From: a phage
Strand: one strand, 5' to 3'
Sequence record: PX880100.1
DNA: 64,000 nucleotides
The stretch's first letter is position 1, and each line of letters starts with the position of its first letter. This document shows positions 9,256 to 24,780 of this stretch, one piece after another. The notes beneath the pieces are model-generated. The model saw only the letters and a program-made list of their open reading frames with translations, was not told the DNA's origin and searched no databases. The translations under genes were made by a program, and so were the position numbers.

Positions 9256-12200
9256 ATGACTGATAAGCTAATACGAGAATTACTAATAGACGTTAAACAG
9301 AAGGGGGCAACTCGTACTGCAAAGTCTATTGAAAACGTATCTGATGCGTTGGAAAATGCTGCTGCTGCTTCCGAACTGACAAATGAGCAGTTAGGTAAAA
9401 TGCCCAAAACTCTTTATTCCATTGAGAGGGCAGCAGACAGAGCAGCGAAAAGTCTTACTAAAATGCAAGCTAGCAGAGGTATGCTTAGTGTTACTAAATC
9501 TATTAATGATATAGGGGCTAAGTTAGACGACCTCGCTATTACAATGATTGAAGTAGCAGATAAATTAGAAGTCGGATTTGATGGAGTTTCTAGATCTGTT
9601 AAAACAATGGGTAATGATGTTGCAGCTGCAACAGAAAAAGTCCAGGATAGATTATATGATACTAATAGAGCATTAGGGGGCACAGCTAGGGGTTTTAATG
9701 ACACTGCTGGTGCCGCTGGCAGAGCATCTAGAGCTATTGGTAATACTTCTGGTTCAGCACGTGGTGCAACTCGTGATTTTGCGGCAATGGCTAAGATCGG
9801 TGGTAGTCTACCTATTATGTACGCAGCTCTTGCTTCTAACATCTTCGTTTTGCAATCTGCATTTGAACAACTTAAACTAGGTGATCAGCTAAATCGTCTA
9901 GAAAAATTTGGTGTTATAGTAGGTACTCAGACAGGTACTCCTGTTCAGACCCTTGCTAGATCACTACAAGAAGCTGCTGGATATGCTATTTCTTTTGAGG
10001 AAGCAATGAGACAGGCATCTTCAGCATCTGCTTATGGATTTGATGCTGAACAACTTAATAAGTTTGGTTTAGTAGCTCGTCGTGCGGCTGCTGTTCTTGG
10101 CGTTGATATGACTGATGCACTTAACCGTGTAATTAAGGGCGTATCTAAACAAGAAATCGAACTTCTGGATGAACTTGGTGTCACCATCCGTCTTAATGAC
10201 GCATACGCTGATTATGTTAAACAGTTAAATGCTGCAAACACAGGTATAACATATAATGTTAATAGTCTTACCACTTTCCAGAAACAACAAGCATACGCTA
10301 ACGCGGTAATTGCTGAATCTACTAAGCGTTTTGGCTACCTAGATGAAGTACTACGTGCAACTCCATGGGAGCAGTTTGCTGCTAATGCAGATGCTGCACT
10401 AAGAAAAATACAACAAGCTGCTGCTAAGTACTTAGGACCAGTAATTGATGCTATCAACACAGTATTTTATACATCTCAGGCTTCTATATCTGCTGAGGCA
10501 GCTAGGGCCCAAGAAAAAACTAATAGACAGATAGACCCTACCAACGTTGGTGCTGTTGCTTTAAGTTTAGCTGCTTCTGAAGAAGGCTATAATAAAGCTC
10601 TAGATATGTATAAGGAATCTCTTGATAAGCGTAATAAGCTAAAATCTGAGTTCGATAAACGAATGGAACAAGCAGATTTCTATACAAAACTAGCTATACG
10701 TCAAGTTGGTGAAGGTATTCCTGTTGGTATTGCAGCCGCGGGCGCTTCCGAAGCTAATAAAAAGTTTGTAGAAGAAACCGCAGCTATGGGTCTACAAGTA
10801 ACTAGACTCGGTAAGGAAGTAGAGGATTCTACAGAGAACCTCAATGCTTGGAAATCAGCTTATCAGGCTGCTGGAGCTGCTGCTGCAAAAGCTAATCCAG
10901 AGTTTCAGAAACAGATTAATCTACAGAGAGATACTACTGATCCTGATGCTGTATACGATTTTAACTCTACTGTATTAAAAGGACTAACTGAACAACAAAA
11001 AGCATATAATCAGACTAAGAAAACTGCTAGTGACTTAGCTAATGATATACAGAACGTTGCTCAGAATACAGATACTGCTGCTAAGACTAGTGCTACTTTA
11101 GCAGATGCTATAAAAAATATAGAATCACTATCTCAAGGTACTGGTAAAAGTGCAGACGAGTATGTTAAAAATCTCAACCTAGGCTACAACACTCTGTCTG
11201 AAATGAAAACTGCGTCTCAGGCCTTATCTGAGTACGTTAAACTAACTGGTAATGAGACTAAGAACCAGCTAGCAGTTCAACAGAAGATAGCTGATGTATA
11301 TAACCAAACTAAGGATAAAGAAAAAGCACAGGAAGCCGGTAGACGTTTAGAACTCCAACAGTTAGAAGAACAAGAAGCTGCTTTACGCCGTGTTCTTCAA
11401 ACAAACCAGGGAAATAAAGCTGTTGAGAAAGAAATTGAAAAAATTCAGCTAGAGAAACTTAAACTTACCAACCAGGGTATGGAAGCTCAGAAGAAGGTTA
11501 AGGATTACACAGATAAAATTCTGGGTGTAGATCGTGAGATAGCCCTTCTAAACGACCGTACTATGACTGCTACTCAGTATAGGTTAGCTCAGTTAAAACT
11601 AGAACTAACTATAGAGAAGGAGAAATACGAGTGGTATTCAAGACAAACTGACAAACAGAAAGAGGCTGAACAGTCTAGACGTGCCCAAGCACAAATAAGT
11701 AGAGAACTGTGGGAAGCAGAGAAACAAGCTACTGCCTCACATGTATCAGCTCTCATGGATGCCTTAGAGGTTAGCCAAACGCAGAGAAATGTCACTGGTC
11801 AGTCCCAGATTCTCACTGAAAGGTTATCCATTCTGCAACAACAGCTGGAGCTGTCTAAGGGCAATACTGAGGAAGAAATTAAATATCGTAATGAGATTTA
11901 TAAAACTTCAGCAGCCTTAGAACAGCTTAGGAAACAGAGAGATAGCCAGATGCAGCAACAGGTAGGGTCTTCTGTAGGTGCTGTATATACTCCTACAACT
12001 GGACTATCTGGAGAAGATAAAGATTTTGCTGATATGCAAAATAGAATGGCTTCTTATGACCAGGCAATCTCTAAATTATCTGAGCTAAACTCTGAAGCAA
12101 CCGCTGTGGCTCAAAGTATGGGTAATCTAACTAATGCCATGATCCAGTTCTCCCAGGGATCTTTAGATACTACTTCCCTGATTGCTTCTGGTATGCAGAC

Positions 12201-12936
12201 TGTGGCCTCTATGATTCAATATAGTACTAGTCAACAGGTTAGTGCAATTGATCAGGCTATTGCAGCAGAGCAGAAACGTGATGGTAAATCAGAAGCATCT
12301 AAAGCTAAGTTGAAGAAGTTGGAAGCTGAAAAGCTGAAAATTCAACAGGACGCAGCTAAGAAGCAGATTATCATCCAAACTGCAGTAGCAGTAATGCAAG
12401 CGGCAACAGCTGTTCCATACCCATTCTCTATTCCACTAATGGTGGCAGCAGGTTTGGCTGGTGCCTTAGCTCTTGCTCAAGCATCCTCTGCATCGAGTAT
12501 GTCGAGTATTGCTGATTCTGGAGCGGATACAACTAGTTACCTAACCTTAGGAGAGCGTCAGAAGAATATAGATGTGTCTATGTCTGCTAATGCTGGTGAA
12601 TTATCTTATATCCGTGGAGATAAAGGCATAGGCGGTGCTAACTCTTTCGTTCCTCGTGCTGAGGGTGGTAATATGTATCCAGGAGTTAGCTATCAGATGG
12701 GTGAGCATGGTACAGAAGTAGTTACCCCTATGGTTCCTATGAGAGCTACGCCTAATGATGAACTTAAAAACTCATCTAACTCAACTTCAGGAAGACCTAT
12801 CATCCTGAATATTAGTGCTATGGATGCTGCAAGTTTTAGAGAGTTTGCTTCTAGTAATAGTAGTGCTCTAAGAGACGCAGTGGAATTAGCTCTGAACGAG
12901 AATGGTGCAAGCCTGAAAACATTAGGAAATTCTTAA
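9256..12936 (+). CDS. tape measure protein (T5 pb2-like, 1226 aa)
   Basis: Largest ORF of the tail module; long alpha-helical, Ala/Gln/Lys-rich sequence; hydrophobic segment (VPYPFSIPLMVAAGLAGALALAQA) near the C-terminus; T5 pb2 is about 1219 aa. Confidence 0.9.
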   Translation: MTDKLIRELLIDVKQKGATRTAKSIENVSDALENAAAASELTNEQLGKMPKTLYSIERAADRAAKSLTKMQASRGMLSVTKSINDIGAKLDDLAITMIEVADKLEVGFDGVSRSVKTMGNDVAAATEKVQDRLYDTNRALGGTARGFNDTAGAAGRASRAIGNTSGSARGATRDFAAMAKIGGSLPIMYAALASNIFVLQSAFEQLKLGDQLNRLEKFGVIVGTQTGTPVQTLARSLQEAAGYAISFEEAMRQASSASAYGFDAEQLNKFGLVARRAAAVLGVDMTDALNRVIKGVSKQEIELLDELGVTIRLNDAYADYVKQLNAANTGITYNVNSLTTFQKQQAYANAVIAESTKRFGYLDEVLRATPWEQFAANADAALRKIQQAAAKYLGPVIDAINTVFYTSQASISAEAARAQEKTNRQIDPTNVGAVALSLAASEEGYNKALDMYKESLDKRNKLKSEFDKRMEQADFYTKLAIRQVGEGIPVGIAAAGASEANKKFVEETAAMGLQVTRLGKEVEDSTENLNAWKSAYQAAGAAAAKANPEFQKQINLQRDTTDPDAVYDFNSTVLKGLTEQQKAYNQTKKTASDLANDIQNVAQNTDTAAKTSATLADAIKNIESLSQGTGKSADEYVKNLNLGYNTLSEMKTASQALSEYVKLTGNETKNQLAVQQKIADVYNQTKDKEKAQEAGRRLELQQLEEQEAALRRVLQTNQGNKAVEKEIEKIQLEKLKLTNQGMEAQKKVKDYTDKILGVDREIALLNDRTMTATQYRLAQLKLELTIEKEKYEWYSRQTDKQKEAEQSRRAQAQISRELWEAEKQATASHVSALMDALEVSQTQRNVTGQSQILTERLSILQQQLELSKGNTEEEIKYRNEIYKTSAALEQLRKQRDSQMQQQVGSSVGAVYTPTTGLSGEDKDFADMQNRMASYDQAISKLSELNSEATAVAQSMGNLTNAMIQFSQGSLDTTSLIASGMQTVASMIQYSTSQQVSAIDQAIAAEQKRDGKSEASKAKLKKLEAEKLKIQQDAAKKQIIIQTAVAVMQAATAVPYPFSIPLMVAAGLAGALALAQASSASSMSSIADSGADTTSYLTLGERQKNIDVSMSANAGELSYIRGDKGIGGANSFVPRAEGGNMYPGVSYQMGEHGTEVVTPMVPMRATPNDELKNSSNSTSGRPIILNISAMDAASFREFASSNSSALRDAVELALNENGASLKTLGNS

Positions 12937-13045: not shown

Positions 13046-13660
13046 ATGAGATTACCAGACCCATACACGAATCCAGAACTTTCAGGCTTAGGATTCGAAA
13101 GTGTTAACCTGATTGATAATGACCCAGTAATTCGTGATGAGTTACCAAATGGTAAAGTTAACGAAGTTAAAGTATCTGCTCAATACTGGGGTATAAATAT
13201 TTCTTACCCAGAACTGTTTCCAGATGAGTATAGTGTTCTAGATTCTTTTATTTTAGAGTACAAAAGAACTGGGGGCTACATAGATGTCATATTACCACAA
13301 TATGAGGCTTTTAGGGTTAGAGGTAACACTGGCTTAGTAAATATACCTGCTGGACAGAAGGGTTCTAATATAACTATGGATACAAAAGGGCTTCTTACAG
13401 GTACCCCAAAACCGGGGGATCTATTTAAGCTGTCTAACCACCCAAAAGTATATAAAATAACATCATTTAACAAATCAGGTAATACATGGTCTATAAACTT
13501 ATACCCTGATTTATTTATAACTACTACTGGAGCGGAGAAGCCAGTATTTAATGGAATACTATTTAGAACAAAACTCATGAATGGTGATGCTTTTGGATCT
13601 ACACTAAATAATAACGGAACATACTCCAACATCTCATTAAATTTACGGGAAAGTCTATGA
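13046..13660 (+). CDS. distal tail protein (T5 pb9-like, 204 aa)
   Basis: Same length as T5 pb9 and same position directly after the tape measure and before the baseplate hub. Confidence 0.8.
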   Translation: MRLPDPYTNPELSGLGFESVNLIDNDPVIRDELPNGKVNEVKVSAQYWGINISYPELFPDEYSVLDSFILEYKRTGGYIDVILPQYEAFRVRGNTGLVNIPAGQKGSNITMDTKGLLTGTPKPGDLFKLSNHPKVYKITSFNKSGNTWSINLYPDLFITTTGAEKPVFNGILFRTKLMNGDAFGSTLNNNGTYSNISLNLRESL

Positions 13661-16506
13661 AAAAAATATTAGATAGTGCTAGAAACTACTTAAAAAATAA
13701 TAGCAGAATAAAAACTGCTAGTCTAATTTCTCTAGAATTACCCGGCTCTACTGGTACTAGTACTGCTTTTATTTACTTAACTGACTATTTTAGAGATGTA
13801 CTATATAATGGTATTTTGTACCAGGCCGGTAAAGTTAAGTCTATTAGCACACATAAACAAAATAGAGATTTATCTATTGGCAGCCTATCTTTTACTATTA
13901 CAGGTACAGCACAGGATGAAGTACTGAAATTAGTGCAGAATGGTGTATCCTTTTTAGATAGACTAGTATCAATCCACCAAGCAATTATTACAGAGAATGG
14001 TTCTATTTTACCTGTAGACCCAGACACAAATGGCCCTTTATTATACTTTAGAGGGAGAATTACTGGTGGAGGTATTAAGGACAATATCAATACTTCTGGG
14101 GTTGGAACCTCCACAATTACTTGGAATTGTTCTAACCAATTCTATGATTTTGATAGGGTTAATGGTAGATTTACTGATGATGCTTCTCATAGAGGGCTTG
14201 AGGTTGTAGCAGGACAATTAGTTCCCTCTAATGGGGCTAAAAGACTTGAGTACCAGGAAGATTATGGGTTCTTTCATGCCAATAAAAGTATCTCTATTTT
14301 AGCAAAATATCAGGTACAGGAAGAAAGATATAAGCTAAAGTCTAAGAAAAAACTATTTGGTCTATCTAGAAGCTATAGTCTTAAAAAGTACTATGAGACT
14401 GTTACTAAAGAAGTAGATATAGATTTTAACCTTGCTGCTAAGTATATACCAGTAGTTTATGGTGTACAGAAAATACCGGGAATACCTATTTTTGCGGATA
14501 CGGAATTACACAATCCTAATATAGTTTATGTAGTATATGCTTTTGCTGAAGGAGAGATAGACGGTTTTCTTGACTTTTCCTTTGGGGATAATCCCATGAT
14601 TTGTATGGACTCTAATGATAGTTCTGCTAGAACCTGTTTCGGTGTTAAAAAAGTAGCCGGAGACACCATGCAAAGAATAGCATCAGGAATATCTTCTAGT
14701 AGTCCTTCTGTGCACGGTCAGGAATATAAATATAATGATGGTAATGGTGATATAAGGATTTGGACTTATCATGGAAAAGCTGATCAAACGGCTTCTGAAG
14801 TATTAGTAAATATAGCGAAGGAACGTGGGTTCTATCTCCAAAATATGAACGGTAATGGGCCTGAGTACTGGGATGCTAGATATAAACTATTAGATACTGC
14901 ATACGCGGTAGTACGCTTTACTATTAATGAAAATAGAACTGAGATCCCAGAAGTTAGTGCTGAGATTCAGGGTAAGAAGATAAAAATCTATCATTCTGAT
15001 GGTAGAGTAACTGCTAATAGCACTAGTTTAAATGGTATCTGGCAAACACTTGACTACTTAACTTCAGATAGGTATGGCGCAAATATTACTATTGATCAGT
15101 TTCCTCTCCAACAATTAGTACAAGAAGCTGCTATCTTAGATATTATAGATGAATCTTACCAAGTATCCTGGCAGCCATACTGGAGATATGTTGGGTGGAC
15201 TGATCCATTAGCAGAAAATAGACAAATAGTACAAATGAATACTATTCTAGATACATCTGAATCAGTATTTAAAAACGTGCAGGGTTTGCTAGAGTCCTAC
15301 GGTGGGGCTATTAACAACTTATCTGGTCAATATAGGATTACTGTAGAAAAATATTCTAATACTCCATTAGAGATTAATTTTCTGGATACTTATGGTGATT
15401 TAGAGCTATCAGATACTACTGGTAGAAATAAATTCAACTCAGTTCAAGCATCCATAGTAGACCCAGCTCTTAGCTGGAAAACTAACTCTATTACCTTTTA
15501 TAACTCTAAATATAAAGAGCAAGATAAAAATTTAGATAAAAAATTACAATTATCTTTTGCAAATATAACTAACTACTATACTGCTAGAAGTTTTGCAGAC
15601 AGAGAACTTAAGAAATCTAGGTATTCTAGAACCCTCTCATTTTCTTTACCATATCAATTCATTGGTATTGAGCCTAACGATGCTATTGCATTTACATACG
15701 ACCGTTACGGATGGGATAAGAAGTACTTTTTAGTAGATGAAGTCGAAAACTCTAGGGAAGGAAAGATAAATGTTACTCTACAGGAGTATGGGGAAGATGT
15801 ATTTATCAACTCTGATCAAGTAGATAATAGTGGTAATGATATACCAGATATTAGTAACAACGTTCTTCCTCCTAGAGATTTTAAATATACTCCTACACCC
15901 GGTGGTTTAGTTGGTTCTATAGGAAAAAATGGTGAGCTATCTTGGCTTCCAAGCTTAACTAATAACGTAGTTTATTATTCTATCGTGCATTCCGGTCATG
16001 CTGAGCCTTATATTGTGCAGCAACTAGAAACAAATCCCAATGAACGCATGATCCAAGAGATAATTGGAGAGCCAGCAGGTTTAGCAATATTTGAAATAAG
16101 GGCTGTGGATATAAACGGTAGAAGAAGTTCTCCAGTAACATTATCTATAGAACTTAATTCTGCTAAAAACCTAAGCGTAGTATCTAATTTTAGGGTAACT
16201 AATACGGCTTCTGGGGATGTAACTGAGTTTGTAGGCCCAGATGTAAAACTAGCTTGGGATAGGATACCAGAAGAAGATATAATAGAAAGTATATTCTATA
16301 CTCTGGAAATCTATGATTCTCAGAATAGAATGCTAAGAAGTGTACGTATTGAAAATCAGTATACTTATGACTATTTATTAATATATAATAAGGCAGATTT
16401 TGCTCTCCATAACAGCGGTGCTCTAGGGATCAATAGAAAACTATATTTTCGTATTAGAGCAGAAGGAGATGATGGAGAACAGTCTGTGGAGTGGGCATCC
16501 ATTTAA
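13657..16506 (+). CDS. baseplate hub / tail tip protein (T5 pb3-like, 949 aa)
   Basis: Same length as T5 pb3 and conserved gene order (distal tail protein, hub, pb4). Confidence 0.8.
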   Translation: MKKILDSARNYLKNNSRIKTASLISLELPGSTGTSTAFIYLTDYFRDVLYNGILYQAGKVKSISTHKQNRDLSIGSLSFTITGTAQDEVLKLVQNGVSFLDRLVSIHQAIITENGSILPVDPDTNGPLLYFRGRITGGGIKDNINTSGVGTSTITWNCSNQFYDFDRVNGRFTDDASHRGLEVVAGQLVPSNGAKRLEYQEDYGFFHANKSISILAKYQVQEERYKLKSKKKLFGLSRSYSLKKYYETVTKEVDIDFNLAAKYIPVVYGVQKIPGIPIFADTELHNPNIVYVVYAFAEGEIDGFLDFSFGDNPMICMDSNDSSARTCFGVKKVAGDTMQRIASGISSSSPSVHGQEYKYNDGNGDIRIWTYHGKADQTASEVLVNIAKERGFYLQNMNGNGPEYWDARYKLLDTAYAVVRFTINENRTEIPEVSAEIQGKKIKIYHSDGRVTANSTSLNGIWQTLDYLTSDRYGANITIDQFPLQQLVQEAAILDIIDESYQVSWQPYWRYVGWTDPLAENRQIVQMNTILDTSESVFKNVQGLLESYGGAINNLSGQYRITVEKYSNTPLEINFLDTYGDLELSDTTGRNKFNSVQASIVDPALSWKTNSITFYNSKYKEQDKNLDKKLQLSFANITNYYTARSFADRELKKSRYSRTLSFSLPYQFIGIEPNDAIAFTYDRYGWDKKYFLVDEVENSREGKINVTLQEYGEDVFINSDQVDNSGNDIPDISNNVLPPRDFKYTPTPGGLVGSIGKNGELSWLPSLTNNVVYYSIVHSGHAEPYIVQQLETNPNERMIQEIIGEPAGLAIFEIRAVDINGRRSSPVTLSIELNSAKNLSVVSNFRVTNTASGDVTEFVGPDVKLAWDRIPEEDIIESIFYTLEIYDSQNRMLRSVRIENQYTYDYLLIYNKADFALHNSGALGINRKLYFRIRAEGDDGEQSVEWASI

Positions 16507-18563
16507 TGATTTCGAATAATGCACCAGCCAAAATGGTCTTAAATAGTATAATGACTGGATATACAATGGCATATGTCCAGCACTCTATATATACTGACTA
16601 TGACGTTATTGGTAGATCTTTTTGGTTAAAGATAGGAGAAAGTATAGATAGACGTGATTATACCGGTATAGATACTTTCTTCGTAATGATTAATAACCTG
16701 ACCCCTTCAACCTCTTACGAGATTCAGGGGGCTTTCTACGATTCTATTATAGACTCTGAACTATTAGAGGCTAAAATTGGTATCAATCTATCTAATGAAA
16801 CCAACTTTAAGACAAAAGAGAAGCCCACAATTGTTGCAGCAAGATCTGAATCAGAACCTGTGGATGTTGGGGTAGGTGCACCGATAGTTGTCGTAGAAAC
16901 AACTGGTGAAGCAAGCTATTGTACTATTGAATTAAAAAGTACAGCTACTGAAGACAGTCCTTGGACTAAGTATTACATTGGGGCTTTAGGTTCTACTATT
17001 AAATTTGGTGGAGTTCCTATCGGAGATTATAAGATCAGAATATCCGGTCAAGTAACTATGCCCGATGGTGTTACAGTCGATTCTTCTGGGTATTATGAAT
17101 TCCCTAATATTTTAACTGTAGCGTATAATTTTATTCCTCCTACCGCACCTATCAATATTGTTTTTAAAGCTGCACGAATTGCTGATGGTAAAGAACGCTA
17201 TGATGTTAGAATTGAGTGGGATTGGGAACGCGGTGGTGGTGCTAATGTTCGTGAGTTCTTGGTTACATATATAAATTCTGAAGAATACGCTAAGACTGGC
17301 TGGGCTAAAGCTCAAAAGATAAACGTTGGTGCTGCCAGAGCTGCAACAATTATATCGTTCCCCTGGAAAGTTGAACATACCTTTAAGGTTTCGTCAATTG
17401 CCTGGGGACCAAATAAACAAGATATAACAGAATCAGCTCCTGTAACATTTATATTGAATGAAGATACCCCTCTAGACAACAGCTTTGTCAATGAGACTGG
17501 TATTGATGTTAACTATGCCTTTATTAAGGGCAGCATGAAAGATGGAGAAATCTGGAGACAGACATTCTTAATCGATGCAGCTACTGGTGCTATTAACATT
17601 GGTCTGCTAGATGAAGAGGGAAAAGCACCTATTTCTTTTGATCCTATAAACCGTGTTGTTAACGTTGATGGTAAAGTAATTACTAGAGATATTAATGCTG
17701 CGAACTTTATCATGACTAACTTATCCGGTAAGGATAATCCAGCAATTTACACTCAAGGTAAATCTTGGGGTGATAATAACTCAGGTATTTGGATGGGGAT
17801 GGATAATACCTCTGCTAAAGCTAAATTAGACATTGGTAACGCTACACAATGGATTCGTTATGATGGTGATACTCTTCGTATATCTAGTGGAGTTGTTATT
17901 GGAACTCCTAATGGTGACGTAGATATTGGTACTGGGATGCAGGGTAAACAAACAGTATTTGTTTATAAGTTAGCAACATCTCTACCCGCTAAACCACTAG
18001 AACAAGATTATCCGCCTCCTGGTTGGTCAAAAACTCCACCTAATCGTACAGATATGACACAAAATATCTATGCGACTACTGGTACACTTGATCCAGTTAC
18101 TAATAGGTTATTAGAGGGTACTAGCTGGTCTGATGTAGTTCAGTGGAGTGGTACTGAAGGTACTATAGGACATGATGGACAACGTGGTCCTGGGATGTAC
18201 TCCTTAGGTATTCCTGGTCTTGGAGGCTGGGATGATGGACAAGCTAATGCCTTCTTCCAGAATAACTTTGGTAGTCCTCCTGTTAGATATGATGTATTAA
18301 CCGAATTTAATAGTAATGCTCCACAATCAGCATTTACCAGACAATGGAATGGATCTGGGTGGGTTAACCCTGCAATGGTTCTTCACGGGAACATGATTGT
18401 TAATGGAACAGTGACGGCAGATAAAATTGTAGCAGGAAATGCTTTCTTGTCTCAAATTGGTGTTAATATCATTTATGATAGAAATGCTGCGTTATCCGGG
18501 AATCCTGAGGCATACTACAAGATGAAGATAGACCTAAATAGTGGGTATATCCATATAAGGTAA
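16491..18563 (+). CDS. tail tip central fibre protein (T5 pb4-like, 690 aa)
   Basis: Length close to T5 pb4 (about 688 aa) and position after the hub gene. Confidence 0.75.
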   Translation: MGIHLMISNNAPAKMVLNSIMTGYTMAYVQHSIYTDYDVIGRSFWLKIGESIDRRDYTGIDTFFVMINNLTPSTSYEIQGAFYDSIIDSELLEAKIGINLSNETNFKTKEKPTIVAARSESEPVDVGVGAPIVVVETTGEASYCTIELKSTATEDSPWTKYYIGALGSTIKFGGVPIGDYKIRISGQVTMPDGVTVDSSGYYEFPNILTVAYNFIPPTAPINIVFKAARIADGKERYDVRIEWDWERGGGANVREFLVTYINSEEYAKTGWAKAQKINVGAARAATIISFPWKVEHTFKVSSIAWGPNKQDITESAPVTFILNEDTPLDNSFVNETGIDVNYAFIKGSMKDGEIWRQTFLIDAATGAINIGLLDEEGKAPISFDPINRVVNVDGKVITRDINAANFIMTNLSGKDNPAIYTQGKSWGDNNSGIWMGMDNTSAKAKLDIGNATQWIRYDGDTLRISSGVVIGTPNGDVDIGTGMQGKQTVFVYKLATSLPAKPLEQDYPPPGWSKTPPNRTDMTQNIYATTGTLDPVTNRLLEGTSWSDVVQWSGTEGTIGHDGQRGPGMYSLGIPGLGGWDDGQANAFFQNNFGSPPVRYDVLTEFNSNAPQSAFTRQWNGSGWVNPAMVLHGNMIVNGTVTADKIVAGNAFLSQIGVNIIYDRNAALSGNPEAYYKMKIDLNSGYIHIR

Positions 18564-18569
18564 TAAATA

Positions 18570-18992
18570 ATGAGTACAGAAAATAGAGTAATTGATATTG
18601 TTGTTGATGAGAAAGTGCCTTATGGTCTTATCATGCAGTTTATGGATGTTGATGATAGTGTATACCCTCCTTCTGAAATACCTGTTAATCTAACAGGTTA
18701 TTCACTTCGTGGAACAATTAAAGCAAGTCTTGACGAGGATGCGGAAACTTTAGCTACTTTTAAAACTCGTATAATCGATGCGGCTCAAGGAGCTGCTGCT
18801 ATTAGCCTTAGTGTTGGAGATGTTAATAATATCGGTATTAAGGCATCCAAAGAGCGTGATAAATATAATCCAAGACAACGTTTCGCAGGTTATTACGATA
18901 TTCTAATGACTCGCGATGTTATTGGTTCAGAAGTCAGTTCTTTCCGTATTATGGAAGGAAAGGTTTATGTGAGTGACGGGGTAACTCAATAA
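18570..18992 (+). CDS. collar protein (T5 p132-like, 140 aa)
   Basis: 140 aa ORF between pb4 and the L-shaped tail fibre gene, matching the T5 p132 position and size as I recall them. Confidence 0.5.
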
Positions 18993-21900
18993 TGGCACTT
19001 AAAACTAAAATTATTGTACAGCAGATCCTGAACATAGATGACACTACAACTACTGCTAGTAAGTATCCTAAATATACAGTAGTTTTAGGAAGTTCTATTA
19101 GCTCTATTACTGCTGGTGAATTAACTGCTGCTGTAGAAGCCACCGCTGCTTCTGCGGCAGCAGCAAAAGATTCTGAAATTGCTGCTAAAGATTCTGAGAA
19201 TAAAGCAAAAGATTCAGAAAACATGGCTGGTATCTATGCTACTTCCTCTGAAACATCTGCAACCCAATCAGCGGCATCTGCGGCCGAGGCTAAAAAACAA
19301 GCTAGTTTATCTCAGAAGAGTGCTGAAGCATCTGCTACATCGGCGGAAGAGTCTAAAGGATTTAGAGATTCTGCTGAATTAGCTGCTCAAAATGCTGAAA
19401 CTAGTCGTAGGCTTGCAGAACAAGCTAAAACAGCTGCGCAACAAGCTCAAACAGCTGCAGAAGCTGCTAAGACTGGTGCTGAAACAGCTAAAGATGGAGC
19501 TGATGCTGCTGCTACCACTGCTGGCGAACATGCTGCTGCTGCAAAGCAATCAGAACTAAACGCTAAGATTTCTGAAACTAATGCTGCTGGTTCTGCTACT
19601 GAAGCCGGTGATAAAGCTAATGATGCTACTACTGAGGCAGATCGTGCTAAAGCTGAGGCAGATCGTGCAACTCAGATTGTTGATAGTAAACTTGATAAAG
19701 TAGATATTTCTGGTTTTATCAAAGTTTATAAGACTAAAGCAGAAGCTGATGCTGATGTTGGAAGTCGTGTACTAGGGGAGAAGATCCTAGTATGGAATCA
19801 AACTGATTCAAAATATGGGTGGTATAAGGTCGCTGGTACTGCCGAGGCTCCTGTTCTAGAATTAGCAGAAATAGAGCAAAAGCTAGTTTCTATTAATAAC
19901 GTTCGTGCAGACGATGCAGGTAACGTACAGATCACGCTTCCCGGTGGTAACCCTTCTTTATGGCTGGGTGAAGTTACTTGGTTCCCCTATGATAAAGATT
20001 CAGGTGTTGGTTACCCTGGTGTTCTACCTGCTGATGGCCGTGAAGTTCTTCGTGTAGACTATCCAGATACTTGGGAGGCTATTGAGGCTGGCTTAATCCC
20101 CTCTGTTACGGAAGAACAATGGCAGGCTGGTGCAACACTCTACTTCTCCACTGGTGATGGTTCCACAACCTTTCGTTTACCAGATATGATGCAAGGACAG
20201 GCATTCCGTGCACCAACTAAAGGTGAAGAAGATGCTGGTGCTATCAAAGAACAAATCCCTTATATCACTACTGTGAATGGGATTGGTCCTGCTGACGATA
20301 CTGGAGCTATTAAGCTACCTTACGTGGCTATGGTTAACGGAGCTATTATACCAGATGAGAATGGTAACCTAACACTAGGTAACGTTGTTACTAAGAATGT
20401 TTGGAATGGTACTGATGGAGAAGTTCTACTTCGCGGTGCTTTTGGTTTAGGTGGTGCTGGTATTGCGTTAAATGAGCCAGATCTAGTATCCTTTTTTAAA
20501 GCTATGAGAGCTTTTGGTTCTGGGTATTATCGCAATGATACTGGATTTGATGGCTTGCCTGCATACGCTGCAGGTTTCTACTCCAGGGTAGCAGATACTA
20601 ACTCATTTATATGCCCAGCGTATGGTAGTGCTTCAGTATTTGTAGCTGCAATCAATGATGCTGGTTTAGATAGTGAAAACCCTATTGTTCATACTAATAT
20701 TCTTTATGGTACTGTTAATAAGCCAGATCTAAATGGTGATACTAATGGAGTTCTTAGTGTTGGTAAAGGAGGTACTGGAGCTACCACAGTTAATGCTGCT
20801 AAGAAAGCTTTAGAAGTTGGTGGAGTTTTCTGTAATGATAGCCCAGCTGATGCTGCTTTCAACTCTCTCCAGAGCCCTGCTGGTATTCATGAGTTTAGAC
20901 TAACTAATGATGGGTTATGGGGTGTATGGAAGAAGGAGGAAGAAACGGTAGCTGCGTTGCCTATAGGCTCTGGAGGTACAGGAGCTACTGATAAAGTTGC
21001 TGCACGTGACAACTTTGGATTGGGGTATCATAATACTCCTAGATTTACTGGGGTAGATCTATCTAACCCCGAAAGTATACCCAATAGTGGTATCCTTAAC
21101 CTAAACAGGCTAAAGGAATCTGATCAAAATGTTATTACTCAGGGTAGAATCTATCATGAGATGCAATCAGGCTTGGCTAAAATTACCCTTCATATTAACA
21201 ATACTTTAAATAGTGCAAACCGTTACATACAGTTTGTAGAAAATGGTGATTTAACTGGGCTACAGGATGTACATGCTGCTAACTACCTTGCAAGTGCTGG
21301 TGTTATATCCCAGGGGTGGATTAAAGGCGGAGAAAAAATCTTCATACAGCAAACAGGCGGGGGCAACAGGGAAATTAGTATGGTTGTACCTACTCCTAAT
21401 AATGACCCTGGTGCTGGTTCTTGGGTTAACTTACTACAGGGTAACTGGTATAACGGTTACTGGCAAGTAGGTGGTATCCGTGGTAGTGGACCGGACTTAG
21501 ACTGCTTACGTATTGGAGTTAACAACGCTGGTACAGATTGGAAAGAGTTTAACTTCTATAACTCTTCCGGTGGGCACATAACTGCTCAAAGAGGTTTTCG
21601 TGGTCAGTGTATCCAAGGATTTTGGGGCTTAGAGTGGAATTACATGGGTGCCCCGTTTCATGCAGAGTCTGTAATAAATAATGATGGTGGTTGGTCTCCA
21701 TTTGTTTCTGGTGGTACTGTATCTACAGGAGGCTACTCACTACGTGTTGGGCTTGGATGTATTTCTAATGGTAACGCTGCATGGCCTGATGCTGCTCTTA
21801 AGTTAAATGGGGATGGCCAGTTCCACCGTTCATTCACCTTTAGAACAAATGGTAGCATATATACTTGGGGTAATGATCCTTGGGGAGGTAATTATGACAT

Positions 21901-22342
21901 TGCTATGAACCCTTCTTCAGATAGAGATATCAAAAGAGATATTAATTATGATGATGGGTTAGCCTCCTATGAGAATATAAAGCAATTTAAACCTACCACA
22001 TTTATCTATAAACTAGATAAGTATAATCGTGTACGCCGTGGTGTTATTGCTCAAGATCTTTATAAAATTGACCCTGAGTACGTAAAACTGGTTCCTGGTT
22101 CTCCTATCATAGAAACTCCAGAACATCATTGCTGTGACGAAGAAACTGAAAACGTAGAAGGTAAGATCATTGATTACAATGATGATACTCTAGCCTTAGA
22201 TATCAACCCAATTGCTATTGATACAGCTTTAGCAGTTCGTTACTTATCTCTAAAGTTCGAAGAGTCCCAGGAAGAACTGAAATCCGTTAAGGCAGAGCTG
22301 GCAGAGTTAAAAGCTCTAGTGGCTACTCTGGTAAATAAGTAA
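18992..22342 (+). CDS. L-shaped tail fibre protein A with C-terminal intramolecular chaperone (autoproteolytic) domain (1116 aa)
   Basis: N-terminal Ala/Glu/Lys-rich coiled coil with AAKDSE repeats; C-terminal segment NPSSDRDIKRDINYDDGLASYENIKQFKPTTFIYKLDKYNRVRRGVIAQDLYKIDPEYVK matches the S-D-x-x-x-K self-cleaving chaperone domain of phage fibres/tailspikes. Confidence 0.85.
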   Translation: MALKTKIIVQQILNIDDTTTTASKYPKYTVVLGSSISSITAGELTAAVEATAASAAAAKDSEIAAKDSENKAKDSENMAGIYATSSETSATQSAASAAEAKKQASLSQKSAEASATSAEESKGFRDSAELAAQNAETSRRLAEQAKTAAQQAQTAAEAAKTGAETAKDGADAAATTAGEHAAAAKQSELNAKISETNAAGSATEAGDKANDATTEADRAKAEADRATQIVDSKLDKVDISGFIKVYKTKAEADADVGSRVLGEKILVWNQTDSKYGWYKVAGTAEAPVLELAEIEQKLVSINNVRADDAGNVQITLPGGNPSLWLGEVTWFPYDKDSGVGYPGVLPADGREVLRVDYPDTWEAIEAGLIPSVTEEQWQAGATLYFSTGDGSTTFRLPDMMQGQAFRAPTKGEEDAGAIKEQIPYITTVNGIGPADDTGAIKLPYVAMVNGAIIPDENGNLTLGNVVTKNVWNGTDGEVLLRGAFGLGGAGIALNEPDLVSFFKAMRAFGSGYYRNDTGFDGLPAYAAGFYSRVADTNSFICPAYGSASVFVAAINDAGLDSENPIVHTNILYGTVNKPDLNGDTNGVLSVGKGGTGATTVNAAKKALEVGGVFCNDSPADAAFNSLQSPAGIHEFRLTNDGLWGVWKKEEETVAALPIGSGGTGATDKVAARDNFGLGYHNTPRFTGVDLSNPESIPNSGILNLNRLKESDQNVITQGRIYHEMQSGLAKITLHINNTLNSANRYIQFVENGDLTGLQDVHAANYLASAGVISQGWIKGGEKIFIQQTGGGNREISMVVPTPNNDPGAGSWVNLLQGNWYNGYWQVGGIRGSGPDLDCLRIGVNNAGTDWKEFNFYNSSGGHITAQRGFRGQCIQGFWGLEWNYMGAPFHAESVINNDGGWSPFVSGGTVSTGGYSLRVGLGCISNGNAAWPDAALKLNGDGQFHRSFTFRTNGSIYTWGNDPWGGNYDIAMNPSSDRDIKRDINYDDGLASYENIKQFKPTTFIYKLDKYNRVRRGVIAQDLYKIDPEYVKLVPGSPIIETPEHHCCDEETENVEGKIIDYNDDTLALDINPIAIDTALAVRYLSLKFEESQEELKSVKAELAELKALVATLVNK

Positions 22343-22347
22343 GAGTA

Positions 22348-22372
22348 TAGGGGAGTAATTCTCCCCTATTTA
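22348..22372 (+). terminator. hairpin between the two tail-fibre genes (weak terminator or attenuator)
   Basis: 8-bp stem TAGGGGAG/CTCCCCTA with 5-nt loop followed by TTTACT; a short, interrupted T-run. Confidence 0.35.
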
Positions 22373-22385
22373 CTAAGGAAATACT

Positions 22386-24473
22386 ATGTCACGTAATTTA
22401 ATGCCTAAATCTGGCGCAATGGCGCCTTACGTAGTAGTTAACAGAGACGCTGCAGTTGCTGGTGTTTTCTCTGTCGATGGAGAGGCTGGTGCTGTTGTAC
22501 TAACTTCCAAATATCTACAAATTTCTAAATATACTACTGATAAAGCTGCTACTGATGCATCTATTAATAGTATTAATGAATCAATTGGTAATATTAATAC
22601 TGCATTAGGTGGTATTAATACTACTTTAGGTACTAAAGCTGCTAAAGGTGCTAATAACGATATTACAGAATTAAATGCACTGACTAAAGCTATTACACTT
22701 ACCCAGGGTGGTACTGGTGCCACTACGTTAGAGGGTGCTAGGAAAGCATTACAAGTTGAACGCCTACAACAGCGAGATAATGGAACTTTTGTTACCTCTA
22801 CAAATGGTAAGTATTCTTTATTTATATATGATAGTGGGGATTTTGGTCTAATTGACAGTTCTACGACAGCGGTACAAGCATTAAAAGTTGCATTTGGTGG
22901 TACTGGAGGAACTACTCCAAAAGTAGCAAGAAAAAATCTTAATGTTCCGGTTGGTGCCTTAGCTGAAAAAATAGCTGATGGAGAAAATGTTCTAAACCAT
23001 GTTGCAGTTGCAGGTCAAAGCGGGTATTATTCATCTGGTGAATTAGTAGTTAACGGGCCTCCTAAGCAAGAAGGTTGGTGGACATATAACTTCCACTGTC
23101 ATGGTGTGGATATTAACGGAGCTGCTCAATACGGGGTACTACATGCGGTTGGCTCATCTGGTAGTTCCTGGGTTAACGTTCTAGATGGTACTGGGAACTG
23201 GAGAGGATGGCAAGAGCAATTTAACGCCCAGTCTACCATACAGTTTTCGAATGGGGGTACTGGTGCAAATTCCAAAGATGGTGCCAGAACTAACCTAGAT
23301 ATTGACAGATTCAAACAAAGTGCTACTGAGACTATGATGTATGCTCCAGGGTCTGGATTCAGAATCACTGCTAGGCCTAATGGGGAATGGGGTAGCTGGA
23401 AAGAGGATACTGATACTTGGGTTCCTTTGGCTATTGCAGCTGGGGGTACGGGGGCTAATTCTGCCGACCAAGCTAGAAAAAATCTAGAATTAACAGAGTG
23501 GAACCTCTTGTCTTCTATGGATGGTAAATACCCAAATGGGTTTAATTTTGACACTCTTGCTGTAAATAGTAAGTTTACTGTTCCACCTACTGGAGGAAAT
23601 ATTGTTGGTACCCGACCACACCAACAAATAAACGGGTTGGAAGACGCTTGGTTTTTCCTAGAGACTCTAGTACACCCAGATCCTAACTATAGAATGCAAA
23701 GAGCCACCATGTTTACAGGAACTTGGAAAGGTTCAGTAAGCGTACGTATTATGGAGAATGGTACTTGGGGTGTATGGCAACAAGCTCATGGGGCTTTGGG
23801 GCAATTAGTTAACGCAATTTCTAATCGAGGGGCCATTAGAGTACAGGGGGCTGCAAGTGGGGAATCTGGATCACTAATAAGCGGTGCTATTAGTGGTGGT
23901 TCATTTACTGATTGGAGATCAAGACCTACAGGAATGCTAGTAGAACATACTGGATTGGATGCTGCATCTTCTGTATTTAAAAGCGTAATGTGGGGTGTAG
24001 ACTGGTTAGCCGGTATGGATGTAGTAGGCTGGAGTGCCGGCAGTGCACAGTTAAACATGTATTGCAGGGGGGCTGAGTTTCGTTTTGATAGCGCTGGTAA
24101 TGCTGTTGGTGGTAACTGGGTAAGCAGTTCTGATATTCGCATGAAAGCTAACCTCAAGGAGATTGAGAATGCCCGTGATAAGGTTAAGTCTCTAGTAGGC
24201 TATACATACTACAAGAGAAATACTCTAGCAGAAGAAAGAGATACCGTGTACAGTACTGAGGCTGGTGTTATCGCTCAAGATGTGCAATCTGTTCTCCCAG
24301 AAGCAGTGTACAAGATTGAGCCACAAAAAGAAGACAGTATGCTTGGTGTCTCCCATGCAGGTGTCAATGCTCTTCTAGTTAATGCTTTTAATGAACTTAA
24401 CGAAGTTGTTGAAAAGCAGCAACAAGAGATTGATGAGCTTAAGAAACTGGTAAAACAGTTACTTGATAAATAA
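22386..24473 (+). CDS. second tail fibre protein (LtfB-like, 695 aa) with C-terminal intramolecular chaperone domain
   Basis: C-terminal segment SSSDIRMKANLKEIENARDKVKSLVGYTYYKRNTLAEERDTVYSTEAGVIAQDVQSVLPEAVYKIEP is a second copy of the autoproteolytic chaperone module; repeated GGTGATT/GGTGAN motifs shared with fibre A. Confidence 0.8.
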   Translation: MSRNLMPKSGAMAPYVVVNRDAAVAGVFSVDGEAGAVVLTSKYLQISKYTTDKAATDASINSINESIGNINTALGGINTTLGTKAAKGANNDITELNALTKAITLTQGGTGATTLEGARKALQVERLQQRDNGTFVTSTNGKYSLFIYDSGDFGLIDSSTTAVQALKVAFGGTGGTTPKVARKNLNVPVGALAEKIADGENVLNHVAVAGQSGYYSSGELVVNGPPKQEGWWTYNFHCHGVDINGAAQYGVLHAVGSSGSSWVNVLDGTGNWRGWQEQFNAQSTIQFSNGGTGANSKDGARTNLDIDRFKQSATETMMYAPGSGFRITARPNGEWGSWKEDTDTWVPLAIAAGGTGANSADQARKNLELTEWNLLSSMDGKYPNGFNFDTLAVNSKFTVPPTGGNIVGTRPHQQINGLEDAWFFLETLVHPDPNYRMQRATMFTGTWKGSVSVRIMENGTWGVWQQAHGALGQLVNAISNRGAIRVQGAASGESGSLISGAISGGSFTDWRSRPTGMLVEHTGLDAASSVFKSVMWGVDWLAGMDVVGWSAGSAQLNMYCRGAEFRFDSAGNAVGGNWVSSSDIRMKANLKEIENARDKVKSLVGYTYYKRNTLAEERDTVYSTEAGVIAQDVQSVLPEAVYKIEPQKEDSMLGVSHAGVNALLVNAFNELNEVVEKQQQEIDELKKLVKQLLDK

Positions 24474-24477
24474 AAGA

Positions 24478-24510
24478 AAACCCCAGTGGATTGCCCACTG
24501 GGGTTTATTA
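24478..24510. terminator. bidirectional rho-independent terminator at the late/early module boundary
   Basis: 12-bp stem AAACCCCAGTGG/CCACTGGGGTTT flanked by A-run upstream and T-run downstream, placed between convergent genes ending at 24473 (+) and 24511 (-). Confidence 0.75.
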
Positions 24511-24780
24511 TTATCTGTTTCCAGCAATAATACCTAAGTTAAATACTGCTAACATAGCTCTAAGCGTAGGATCTTGAGACTTGCTACATAGCTCAACAAA
24601 AGCTTCTTCATTCCAATGGATTACATTGCCTTCATTATCTACTTTCAGAACTATATTATTTAGGTTAGGTTCAGCAACCGCAACGTGATAGTTCTTTGAG
24701 TGCTCAAAGTTAGCTACCATCTTAGGGTCTGAATATTCGTACTTATTTATTTCCTGAACTTCCAAATCCGCCTTCTCCAC
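24511..24780 (-). CDS. hypothetical protein (89 aa)
   Basis: Minus-strand ORF downstream of dUTPase; track start is a GTG codon and overlaps the dUTPase 3' end, so the start is uncertain. Confidence 0.3.
   Translation of the reverse strand: MEKADLEVQEINKYEYSDPKMVANFEHSKNYHVAVAEPNLNNIVLKVDNEGNVIHWNEEAFVELCSKSQDPTLRAMLAVFNLGIIAGNR

Follow-up and report, generated by a model that had tools for sequence, protein, structure and literature searches.

A probable two-gene lateral tail-fibre locus of the DT57C/SPC35 form in the T5-like phage sequence PX880100.1

Introduction

From the presence of gp14-like and gp15-like modules, Golomidova et al. (2016; PMC4728585) proposed that in coliphages DT57C and DT571/2 the tail-fibre protein LtfB is borne on a second protein, LtfA, to give a branched fibre; analysis in silico and of mutants led them to conclude that LtfB is joined to the tail via LtfA. 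A further protein, LtfC, forms a dodecameric collar that is threaded by LtfA (Ayala et al., 2023; PMC10713586; PDB 8hqz). The glycans recognized by DT57C are reported to be O22-like for LtfA and O81-type for LtfB (PMC4728585; PMC10713586). Phage SPC35 was named as a phage with two ltf genes in 2016, as were roughly half of the T5-like phages that had been sequenced (PMC4728585), and a 2025 paper describes LtfA plus LtfB as the usual fibre composition of T5-like phages (PMC12752171). Here we analyse the corresponding genes in a 64,000-nucleotide stretch of phage DNA (sequence record PX880100.1; the whole stretch is referred to as the window), where two consecutive open reading frames (ORF1 and ORF2) between positions 18992 and 24473 encode tail-fibre proteins.

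Results

Two intact fibre genes follow ltfC

Very probably this Tequintavirus locus encodes the lateral (L-shaped) tail fibres and has the two-gene organization known from DT57C and SPC35 (ltfC-ltfA-ltfB), a confidence that applies jointly to this identification and to the whole mechanism set out in the Discussion. Such a locus type is already known and described. Both fibre genes are intact, start at an ATG and lie, with ltfC, on the + strand:

18570–18992, + strand: ltfC, collar protein anchoring the lateral fibres, 140 amino acids (Pfam PF23926 LtfC, E 3.1e-14)
18992–22342, + strand: ltfA (ORF1), proximal main lateral tail-fibre protein, precursor of 1116 amino acids (phrog_5481, end to end)
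22386–24473, + strand: ltfB (ORF2), second (branch) tail-fibre protein, precursor of 695 amino acids (phrog_12321, residues 1–695 of 695)

The ltfC gene lies directly 5′ of the fibre genes, its stop codon and the ATG of ltfA sharing one base (TAATG). LtfC is 94% identical to its DT57C counterpart, residues 1–442 of LtfA are 88% identical to DT57C LtfA (441 amino acids aligned, from residue 2) and LtfB shows 94% identity to DT57C LtfB over its first 50 amino acids. In its replication region (25 kb) the window matches many Tequintavirus genomes at ~96–97% identity and thus comes from a T5-like phage. A sequence-only reading of this DNA had proposed two consecutive fibre genes in place of the single long one of T5, each ending in an S-D-x-x-x-K chaperone module, with a hairpin between them and an overall arrangement like that of DT57C. 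All of these points were borne out: T5 ltf is indeed one gene (1396 amino acids), and the DT57C-like arrangement is supported both by the identities above and by the gp14-like and gp15-like modules described next.

Domain organization of LtfA and LtfB

The two precursors could be divided into the following regions:

18992–19711, + strand: LtfA residues 1–240, N-terminal strands expected to enter the LtfC ring, followed by a trimeric, Ala-rich coiled coil
19658–20317, + strand: LtfA residues 223–442, domain like phiEco32 gp14 and the SU10 fibre, proposed docking site for LtfB (branch point)
20318–21916, + strand: LtfA residues 443–975, distal shaft with GGTGA..AR..L motifs and all-beta tip, presumed glycan-binding region
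21917–22339, + strand: LtfA residues 976–1116, Peptidase_S74 intramolecular chaperone, then a long C-terminal helix
22386–22520, + strand: LtfB residues 1–45, predicted adaptor to LtfA (phiEco32 gp15 N-terminus)
22521–24128, + strand: LtfB residues 46–581, presumed receptor-binding part, tip at ~351–581
24129–24470, + strand: LtfB residues 582–695, Peptidase_S74 intramolecular chaperone, then a C-terminal helix

ORF1 matches the DT57C LtfA chain whose N-terminal part has been solved (PDB 8hqz_d, E 4e-246), and the structural role given to the LtfA N-terminus is taken from that cryo-electron microscopy (cryo-EM) paper (PMC10713586). At its N-terminus LtfA also shares 55 of 86 residues (64%) with pb1 of T5. 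The presumed branch point is marked by residues 223–442, 42% identical to residues 239–461 of phiEco32 gp14 (E 2e-49), an overlapping segment (residues 229–457) matching the SU10 fibre (PDB 7z47_D, E 1.2e-42); the role of this gp14-like domain in docking LtfB is a proposal of Golomidova et al. (PMC4728585). Its prospective partner, the segment comprising LtfB residues 1–45, is 66% identical to the N-terminus of phiEco32 gp15 (E 3e-20).

Beyond these junction modules both proteins extend into presumed shafts and tips. The AlphaFold2 (AF2) model of distal LtfA has a predicted local distance difference test score (pLDDT) of 67.5 overall, with two all-beta regions at ORF1 residues ~662–762 and ~802–962 mostly above 80. 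LtfB is helical at residues 41–86 and continues as repeated small beta domains, with GGTGA motifs between them, up to the distal tip. A structure search paired the LtfB model with fibres and receptor-binding proteins of phages, which lends weak support to the receptor-binding domain that had been expected in ORF2.

Two features of the N-terminal parts were noted in passing. The Ala-rich coiled coil of ltfA contains two tandem repeats of 21 nucleotides, i.e. seven codons or one heptad (19162–19221 and 19419–19458), which could let the proximal fibre rod vary in length via slippage or recombination. The LtfB adaptor (window 22386–22610) is found elsewhere, in protein-database entries from other phages and metagenomic contigs, joined to C-terminal modules not of the S74 type (PF25670 and the PF07484 collar domain), and it may therefore act like a portable 'plug' for varied tips.

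Both fibres end in a Peptidase S74 chaperone

Each ORF contains one S-D-x-x-x-K motif, SDRDIK at residues 976–981 of ORF1 and SDIRMK at residues 582–587 of ORF2. Roughly estimated, typical residue frequencies would yield this motif by chance ~0.2 times per ~1100 amino acids; what gives it weight here is less the motif alone than the fact that a Pfam match begins exactly with its first residue. These matches, to PF13884 (Peptidase_S74; curated cut-off 22 bits), span residues 976–1032 of ORF1 (39.3 bits, E 7.9e-10) and 582–642 of ORF2 (50.9 bits, E 1.9e-13). The Ser and Lys of the motif are invariant in 58 homologues of LtfA and in 50 homologues of LtfB (S582, K587), and the motif aligns with 'TSDARLK' in T5 pb1 as well as with the equivalent S...K in both DT57C LtfA and LtfB. 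The predicted C-terminal structures match solved chaperones (MyRF ICA, 7dc3; GA-1, 3gud; T5 pb1, 4uw8), the LtfB chaperone finding the MyRF ICA domain 7dc3 with Foldseek and, by sequence, the distal subunit of a long tail fibre (PDB 6f45, E 7.6e-11). The chaperone fold is followed by a terminal trimerising helix, as is characteristic of Peptidase S74 members. Self-cleavage is predicted just before Ser976 in LtfA (Ser976/Lys981 dyad), which would leave ~975 amino acids, and just before Ser582 in LtfB (Ser582/Lys587 dyad), which would leave ~581.

The S74 domain of LtfA contains an acidic insertion of ~35–40 residues (PGSPIIETPEHHCCDEETENVEGKIIDYND..., ORF1 residues ~1030–1068, window 22070–22190) holding an H-H-C-C cluster (PGSPIIETPEHHCCDEETENVEGK...), a possible metal site. 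The LtfB chaperone lacks this insertion. A comparable one occupies the equivalent position in the DT57C chaperones but has no HHCC cluster.

A conserved hairpin separates the fibre genes

The spacer of 43 nucleotides between ltfA and ltfB contains a hairpin, followed by the ribosome-binding sequence of ltfB, and a terminator lies beyond ltfB:

22347–22369, + strand: intergenic hairpin, 9-bp stem (ATAGGGGAG/CTCCCCTAT), 5-nucleotide loop, weak T tail
22375–22379, + strand: AAGGA Shine–Dalgarno of ltfB, read from the sequence, 6 nucleotides before the ATG
24478–24506, either strand: strong bidirectional intrinsic terminator, 12–13-bp stem, a T run on each strand

A 61-nucleotide stretch with the hairpin folds at −17.2 kcal/mol (z = −2.5 vs shuffled sequences). 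The hairpin is identical in phages Th1, Kenya-K37, TUMS_E3 and SPC35, and changed in the loop only in DaisyDussoix, while the DT57C ltfA-ltfB spacer and the spacer between genes 14 and 15 of phiEco32 carry a hairpin of other sequence at the same place. It seems to be the structure of this stem-loop rather than its sequence that goes with the two-gene fibre module, a hairpin being present in every genome checked. Its role is most likely that of a leaky or partial terminator, or of a stabiliser of the mRNA 3′ end, between the fibre genes. The terminator at 24478–24506, between ltfB and a convergent DUF7369 gene, closes the late tail operon; an 'efficient bidirectional rho-independent terminator' is annotated at the same syntenic place in T5.

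Close relatives carry the same alleles in different combinations

At 92–96% DNA identity, the 6.2-kb locus recurs in ~30 GenBank phages. The identity reaches 95.7% in Kenya-K37 and K43, which are Salmonella phages, and 95.6% in a group of food isolates (chee24, pork27/29, saus47N/111K and poul124), and is 92–94% in vB_Sen-E22, SSP1, smaug, NR01, Th1, SPC35 and others, with 35 records covering at least 80% of the locus. Annotated lengths of LtfA and LtfB are likewise 1116 and 695 amino acids in Th1, Kenya-K37 and SPC35 (1116 and 696 in TUMS_E3). LtfA is 98.0% identical to that of vB_Sen_TUMS_E3, 96.2% to Kenya-K37, 95.1% to DaisyDussoix and 92.7% to SPC35; for LtfB the values are 95.8% (Kenya-K37), 96% (oldekolle) and ~92% (SPC35 and Th1). 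Differences from the SPC35-type relatives amount to 2–8% of amino acids and occur in short patches (e.g. ORF1 residues 500–550 and 750–800 vs Kenya-K37).

For residues 443–975 of LtfA, 38 records reach an identity of 90% or more (98.3% in TUMS_E3); for the LtfB tip (residues 351–581) 40 records do so, mostly of Salmonella-infecting phages. The sequence-only reading was thus right about the kind of locus, a DT57C-like two-gene fibre, but its expectation that the receptor-binding regions would be novel did not hold, as they are 97–98% identical to regions of known phages. Neither exact protein, LtfA or LtfB, occurs in a collection of 15 billion proteins; given the near-identical relatives, this points to an unrecorded isolate or variant and not to a new kind of phage.

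LtfA and LtfB alleles are exchanged independently among T5-like relatives. In DaisyDussoix this LtfA (95%) is paired with an LtfB that is unrelated except for its first ~75 residues, which include the adaptor, and TUMS_E3 combines it (98%) with an LtfB whose tip is 64% identical. Conversely, the present LtfB tip (97–98%) is found in oldekolle, S130/S131 and Cit2; in oldekolle and S131 this LtfB (96–98%) goes with a different LtfA tip, the LtfA distal region of oldekolle being only 53% identical. Residues 667–975 of ORF1 are also ~50% identical to fibres of the T1-like phages egaa and tonnikala, whose genomes are of ~50 kb, and ~50 further fibre proteins on contigs of ~50 kb, including that of FritzSarasin, match distal LtfA at 45–51%. 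Comparisons of this kind indicate that tip modules may be exchanged between T5-like and T1-like (Drexlerviridae) phages. The similarity extends over distal shaft, tip and chaperone (residues ~590–1116, noted at window 20318–22339), which are ~45–50% identical to T1-like lateral fibres of ~890 amino acids.

Gene neighbourhood

The fibre genes close a run of late genes on the + strand whose order is that of T5 and DT57C:

9256–12936, + strand: pb2 (tape measure), in the gene order of T5/DT57C and followed by Dit pb9
13657–16506, + strand: pb3, late tail run
16491–18563, + strand: pb4, late tail run

The longest pb4 ORF begins at a GTG and overlaps the end of pb3 by 16 nucleotides (16491–16506); it encodes 690 amino acids compared with the 685 annotated in DT57C, and the real start may be a later ATG. 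Convergent genes for DUF7369, dUTPase and a flap endonuclease lie 3′ of ltfB, the first of these being an ORF of 89 amino acids (24511–24780, − strand; Pfam DUF7369, E 1.5e-35) that is conserved in T5-like phages. Two ORFs antisense to ltfB (23786–24157 and 23126–23554, − strand) were dismissed as spurious, having neither a Pfam match nor any similarity to the T5.134 ORF of equal length that lies antisense within T5 ltf. A tRNA scan of the window found none.

Discussion

Proposed assembly and function

Direct observation of this locus and its relatives shows two intact genes, the domains that they encode, homology for each module, and LtfA and LtfB alleles that assort independently. By analogy with work on DT57C, T5 and SPC35, a physically branched fibre, self-cleaving precursors and glycan-binding tips can be envisaged on this basis. 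The LtfC collar, which encircles the tail tip, would take up the N-terminal strands of LtfA trimers; these trimers would emerge as a coiled coil, and the gp14-like domain (residues ~223–442) would hold the 45-residue N-terminal adaptor of LtfB trimers, so that each side fibre would be branched and end in two different distal tips. Each precursor would be aided in folding and trimerisation by its own C-terminal S74 chaperone, which would then cut itself off at the Ser-Lys dyad (before Ser976 and before Ser582), baring the mature tip. The two tips may bind surface glycans reversibly, most likely O-antigens, which would speed adsorption and help the phage past the O-antigen barrier before the central-fibre protein binds its outer-membrane receptor irreversibly.

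Several observations weigh against this scheme. The DT57C cryo-EM map contains weak density attributed to LtfB and gives no LtfA-LtfB complex at the atomic level (PMC10713586), and the literature that we searched reports no receptor for these particular alleles. Our structure models are monomers of trimeric fibre proteins with a mean pLDDT of 67–70 and as such give weak support; the ~45-residue LtfB adaptor was modelled at a pLDDT below 50, though this is expected of a segment that folds only in complex, and, apart from the chaperone domain, a search with the LtfA tip model returned no solved structure that matched convincingly. Since neither tip has a solved structural relative, either could be a new glycan-binding fold.

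Alternative readings

The weak densities assigned to LtfB in DT57C touch the tail tip, with no LtfA-LtfB junction resolved (PMC10713586), and LtfB could accordingly be attached straight to the tail tip (e.g. to LtfC, pb3 or pb4), giving two separate, unbranched sets of side fibres. We consider this quite improbable, as the LtfB N-terminus shows no similarity to any T5 tail protein but 66% identity to phiEco32 gp15, a gp14-like partner domain occurs in LtfA, LtfB of DT57C was concluded to be connected via LtfA (PMC4728585), and the cryo-EM authors themselves read the contact as the C-terminal end of a folded-back LtfB (PMC10713586). Their folded-back LtfB, suggested as a possible environmental sensor, leads to another possibility, that LtfB sits on LtfA in a mainly conditional or regulatory capacity and is freed by environmental cues, specificity coming mostly from one of the two proteins; loci of the DT57C type do often collapse spontaneously to one gene, keeping one receptor-recognition centre (PMC4728585). 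On the other hand, both DT57C proteins were assigned receptor recognition domains (PMC4728585), an O81-type O-antigen is named as the LtfB receptor (PMC10713586), and the present LtfB tip allele is tightly kept (90% identity or more) in ~40 mostly Salmonella phages while LtfA varies, which argues for selection on a binding function of LtfB's own. A mainly regulatory LtfB therefore appears unlikely to us.

We give next to no credence to the idea that ORF2 is what a frameshift or truncation left of one long T5-type fibre gene, or a duplicate without function. The two ORFs do lie in different frames, 43 nucleotides apart, and end in the same kind of domain, but the S74 domain that closes ORF1 is complete and has its terminal helix, ORF2 possesses a Shine–Dalgarno sequence, an ATG and a conserved LtfB/gp15-type adaptor of its own, and full-length orthologues of 695–696 amino acids exist in dozens of phages, which together led us to rule out a frameshift or pseudogene. 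A recent duplication was likewise rejected, ORF1 and ORF2 sharing only weak local similarity (24–32% identity) in the GGTGA motifs and the chaperone.

Candidate receptors

The only functional hint for this allele pair in the searched literature is the blocking of SPC35 by O-antigen glucosylation in Typhimurium (bioRxiv 10.1101/2023.11.08.566301), which is consistent with an O-antigen-binding fibre. Phage 37 of the same preprint was considered as a direct functional analogue and set aside, being an Epseptimavirus with a single ltf gene; it offers only a general analogy of Ltf and O-antigen co-evolution. In the BASEL study robust plaques on S. Typhimurium were formed by SuperGirl only, and hence not by DaisyDussoix. 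Because the LtfB tip occurs mostly in Salmonella phages, and because no such plaques come from DaisyDussoix, in which this LtfA is present but this LtfB is missing, we infer that LtfB is the better candidate for a Salmonella-specific arm. More tentatively, and with rather more doubt than belief, the two tips could split the work by genus, LtfB binding a backbone epitope of the Salmonella O-antigen (perhaps the epitope that GtrABC glucosylation hides when cells resist SPC35) and LtfA another glycan, possibly of E. coli, so as to explain together the SPC35-type host range of E. coli plus Salmonella. This suggestion is based on the LtfB tip being kept at 90% or more in ~40 phages whatever the LtfA, and on the LtfA tip being 95% identical in the coliphage DaisyDussoix and ~50% in T1-like coliphages.

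Significance

For annotation, the labels ltfC, ltfA and ltfB can be assigned with confidence, together with the predicted maturation sites before Ser976 and before Ser582. The phage is expected to act like SPC35, Kenya-K37 and chee24 in having an O-antigen-dependent host range. As tips are swapped independently among T5-like phages, and in part with T1-like ones, any prediction or engineering of host range must score the LtfA and LtfB tips separately. Beyond correct annotation the significance is small, the locus being of a textbook-level, previously described type.

Comparison with known fibre systems

The closest system, DT57C, has the same order ltfC-ltfA-ltfB, adjoining pb4 and convergent with dut, an S74 chaperone on both fibres and a hairpin in the spacer. 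It differs in the distal parts, LtfA being only 14–26% identical beyond residue ~450 and LtfB only 18–44% beyond residue ~100, the pattern that would be expected of receptor-binding parts. With tips unrelated to the DT57C alleles, the glycans bound here are expected to differ from those of DT57C. T5 has its single ltf gene at the same position (pb1, 1396 amino acids; C-terminal domain and chaperone in PDB 4UW7/4UW8), without a gp14-like docking domain, without LtfB and with another tip, for which the annotation gives binding to polymannose O-antigen. In the Kuravirus podophages phiEco32 (gp14/gp15) and SU10 (long and short fibres, PDB 7z47) the junction modules are shared with the present locus and are likewise encoded by two adjacent genes with a hairpin between them; they differ in serving a podovirus tail rather than the siphovirus tail tip found here, and in having another N-terminal anchoring and other tips. 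The C-terminal domains resemble Peptidase S74 chaperones from a broad range of proteins (K1F endosialidase; GA-1 gp12, 3GUD; 6F45; MyRF ICA, 7DC3) in the Ser-Lys i/i+5 dyad and in the terminal helix.

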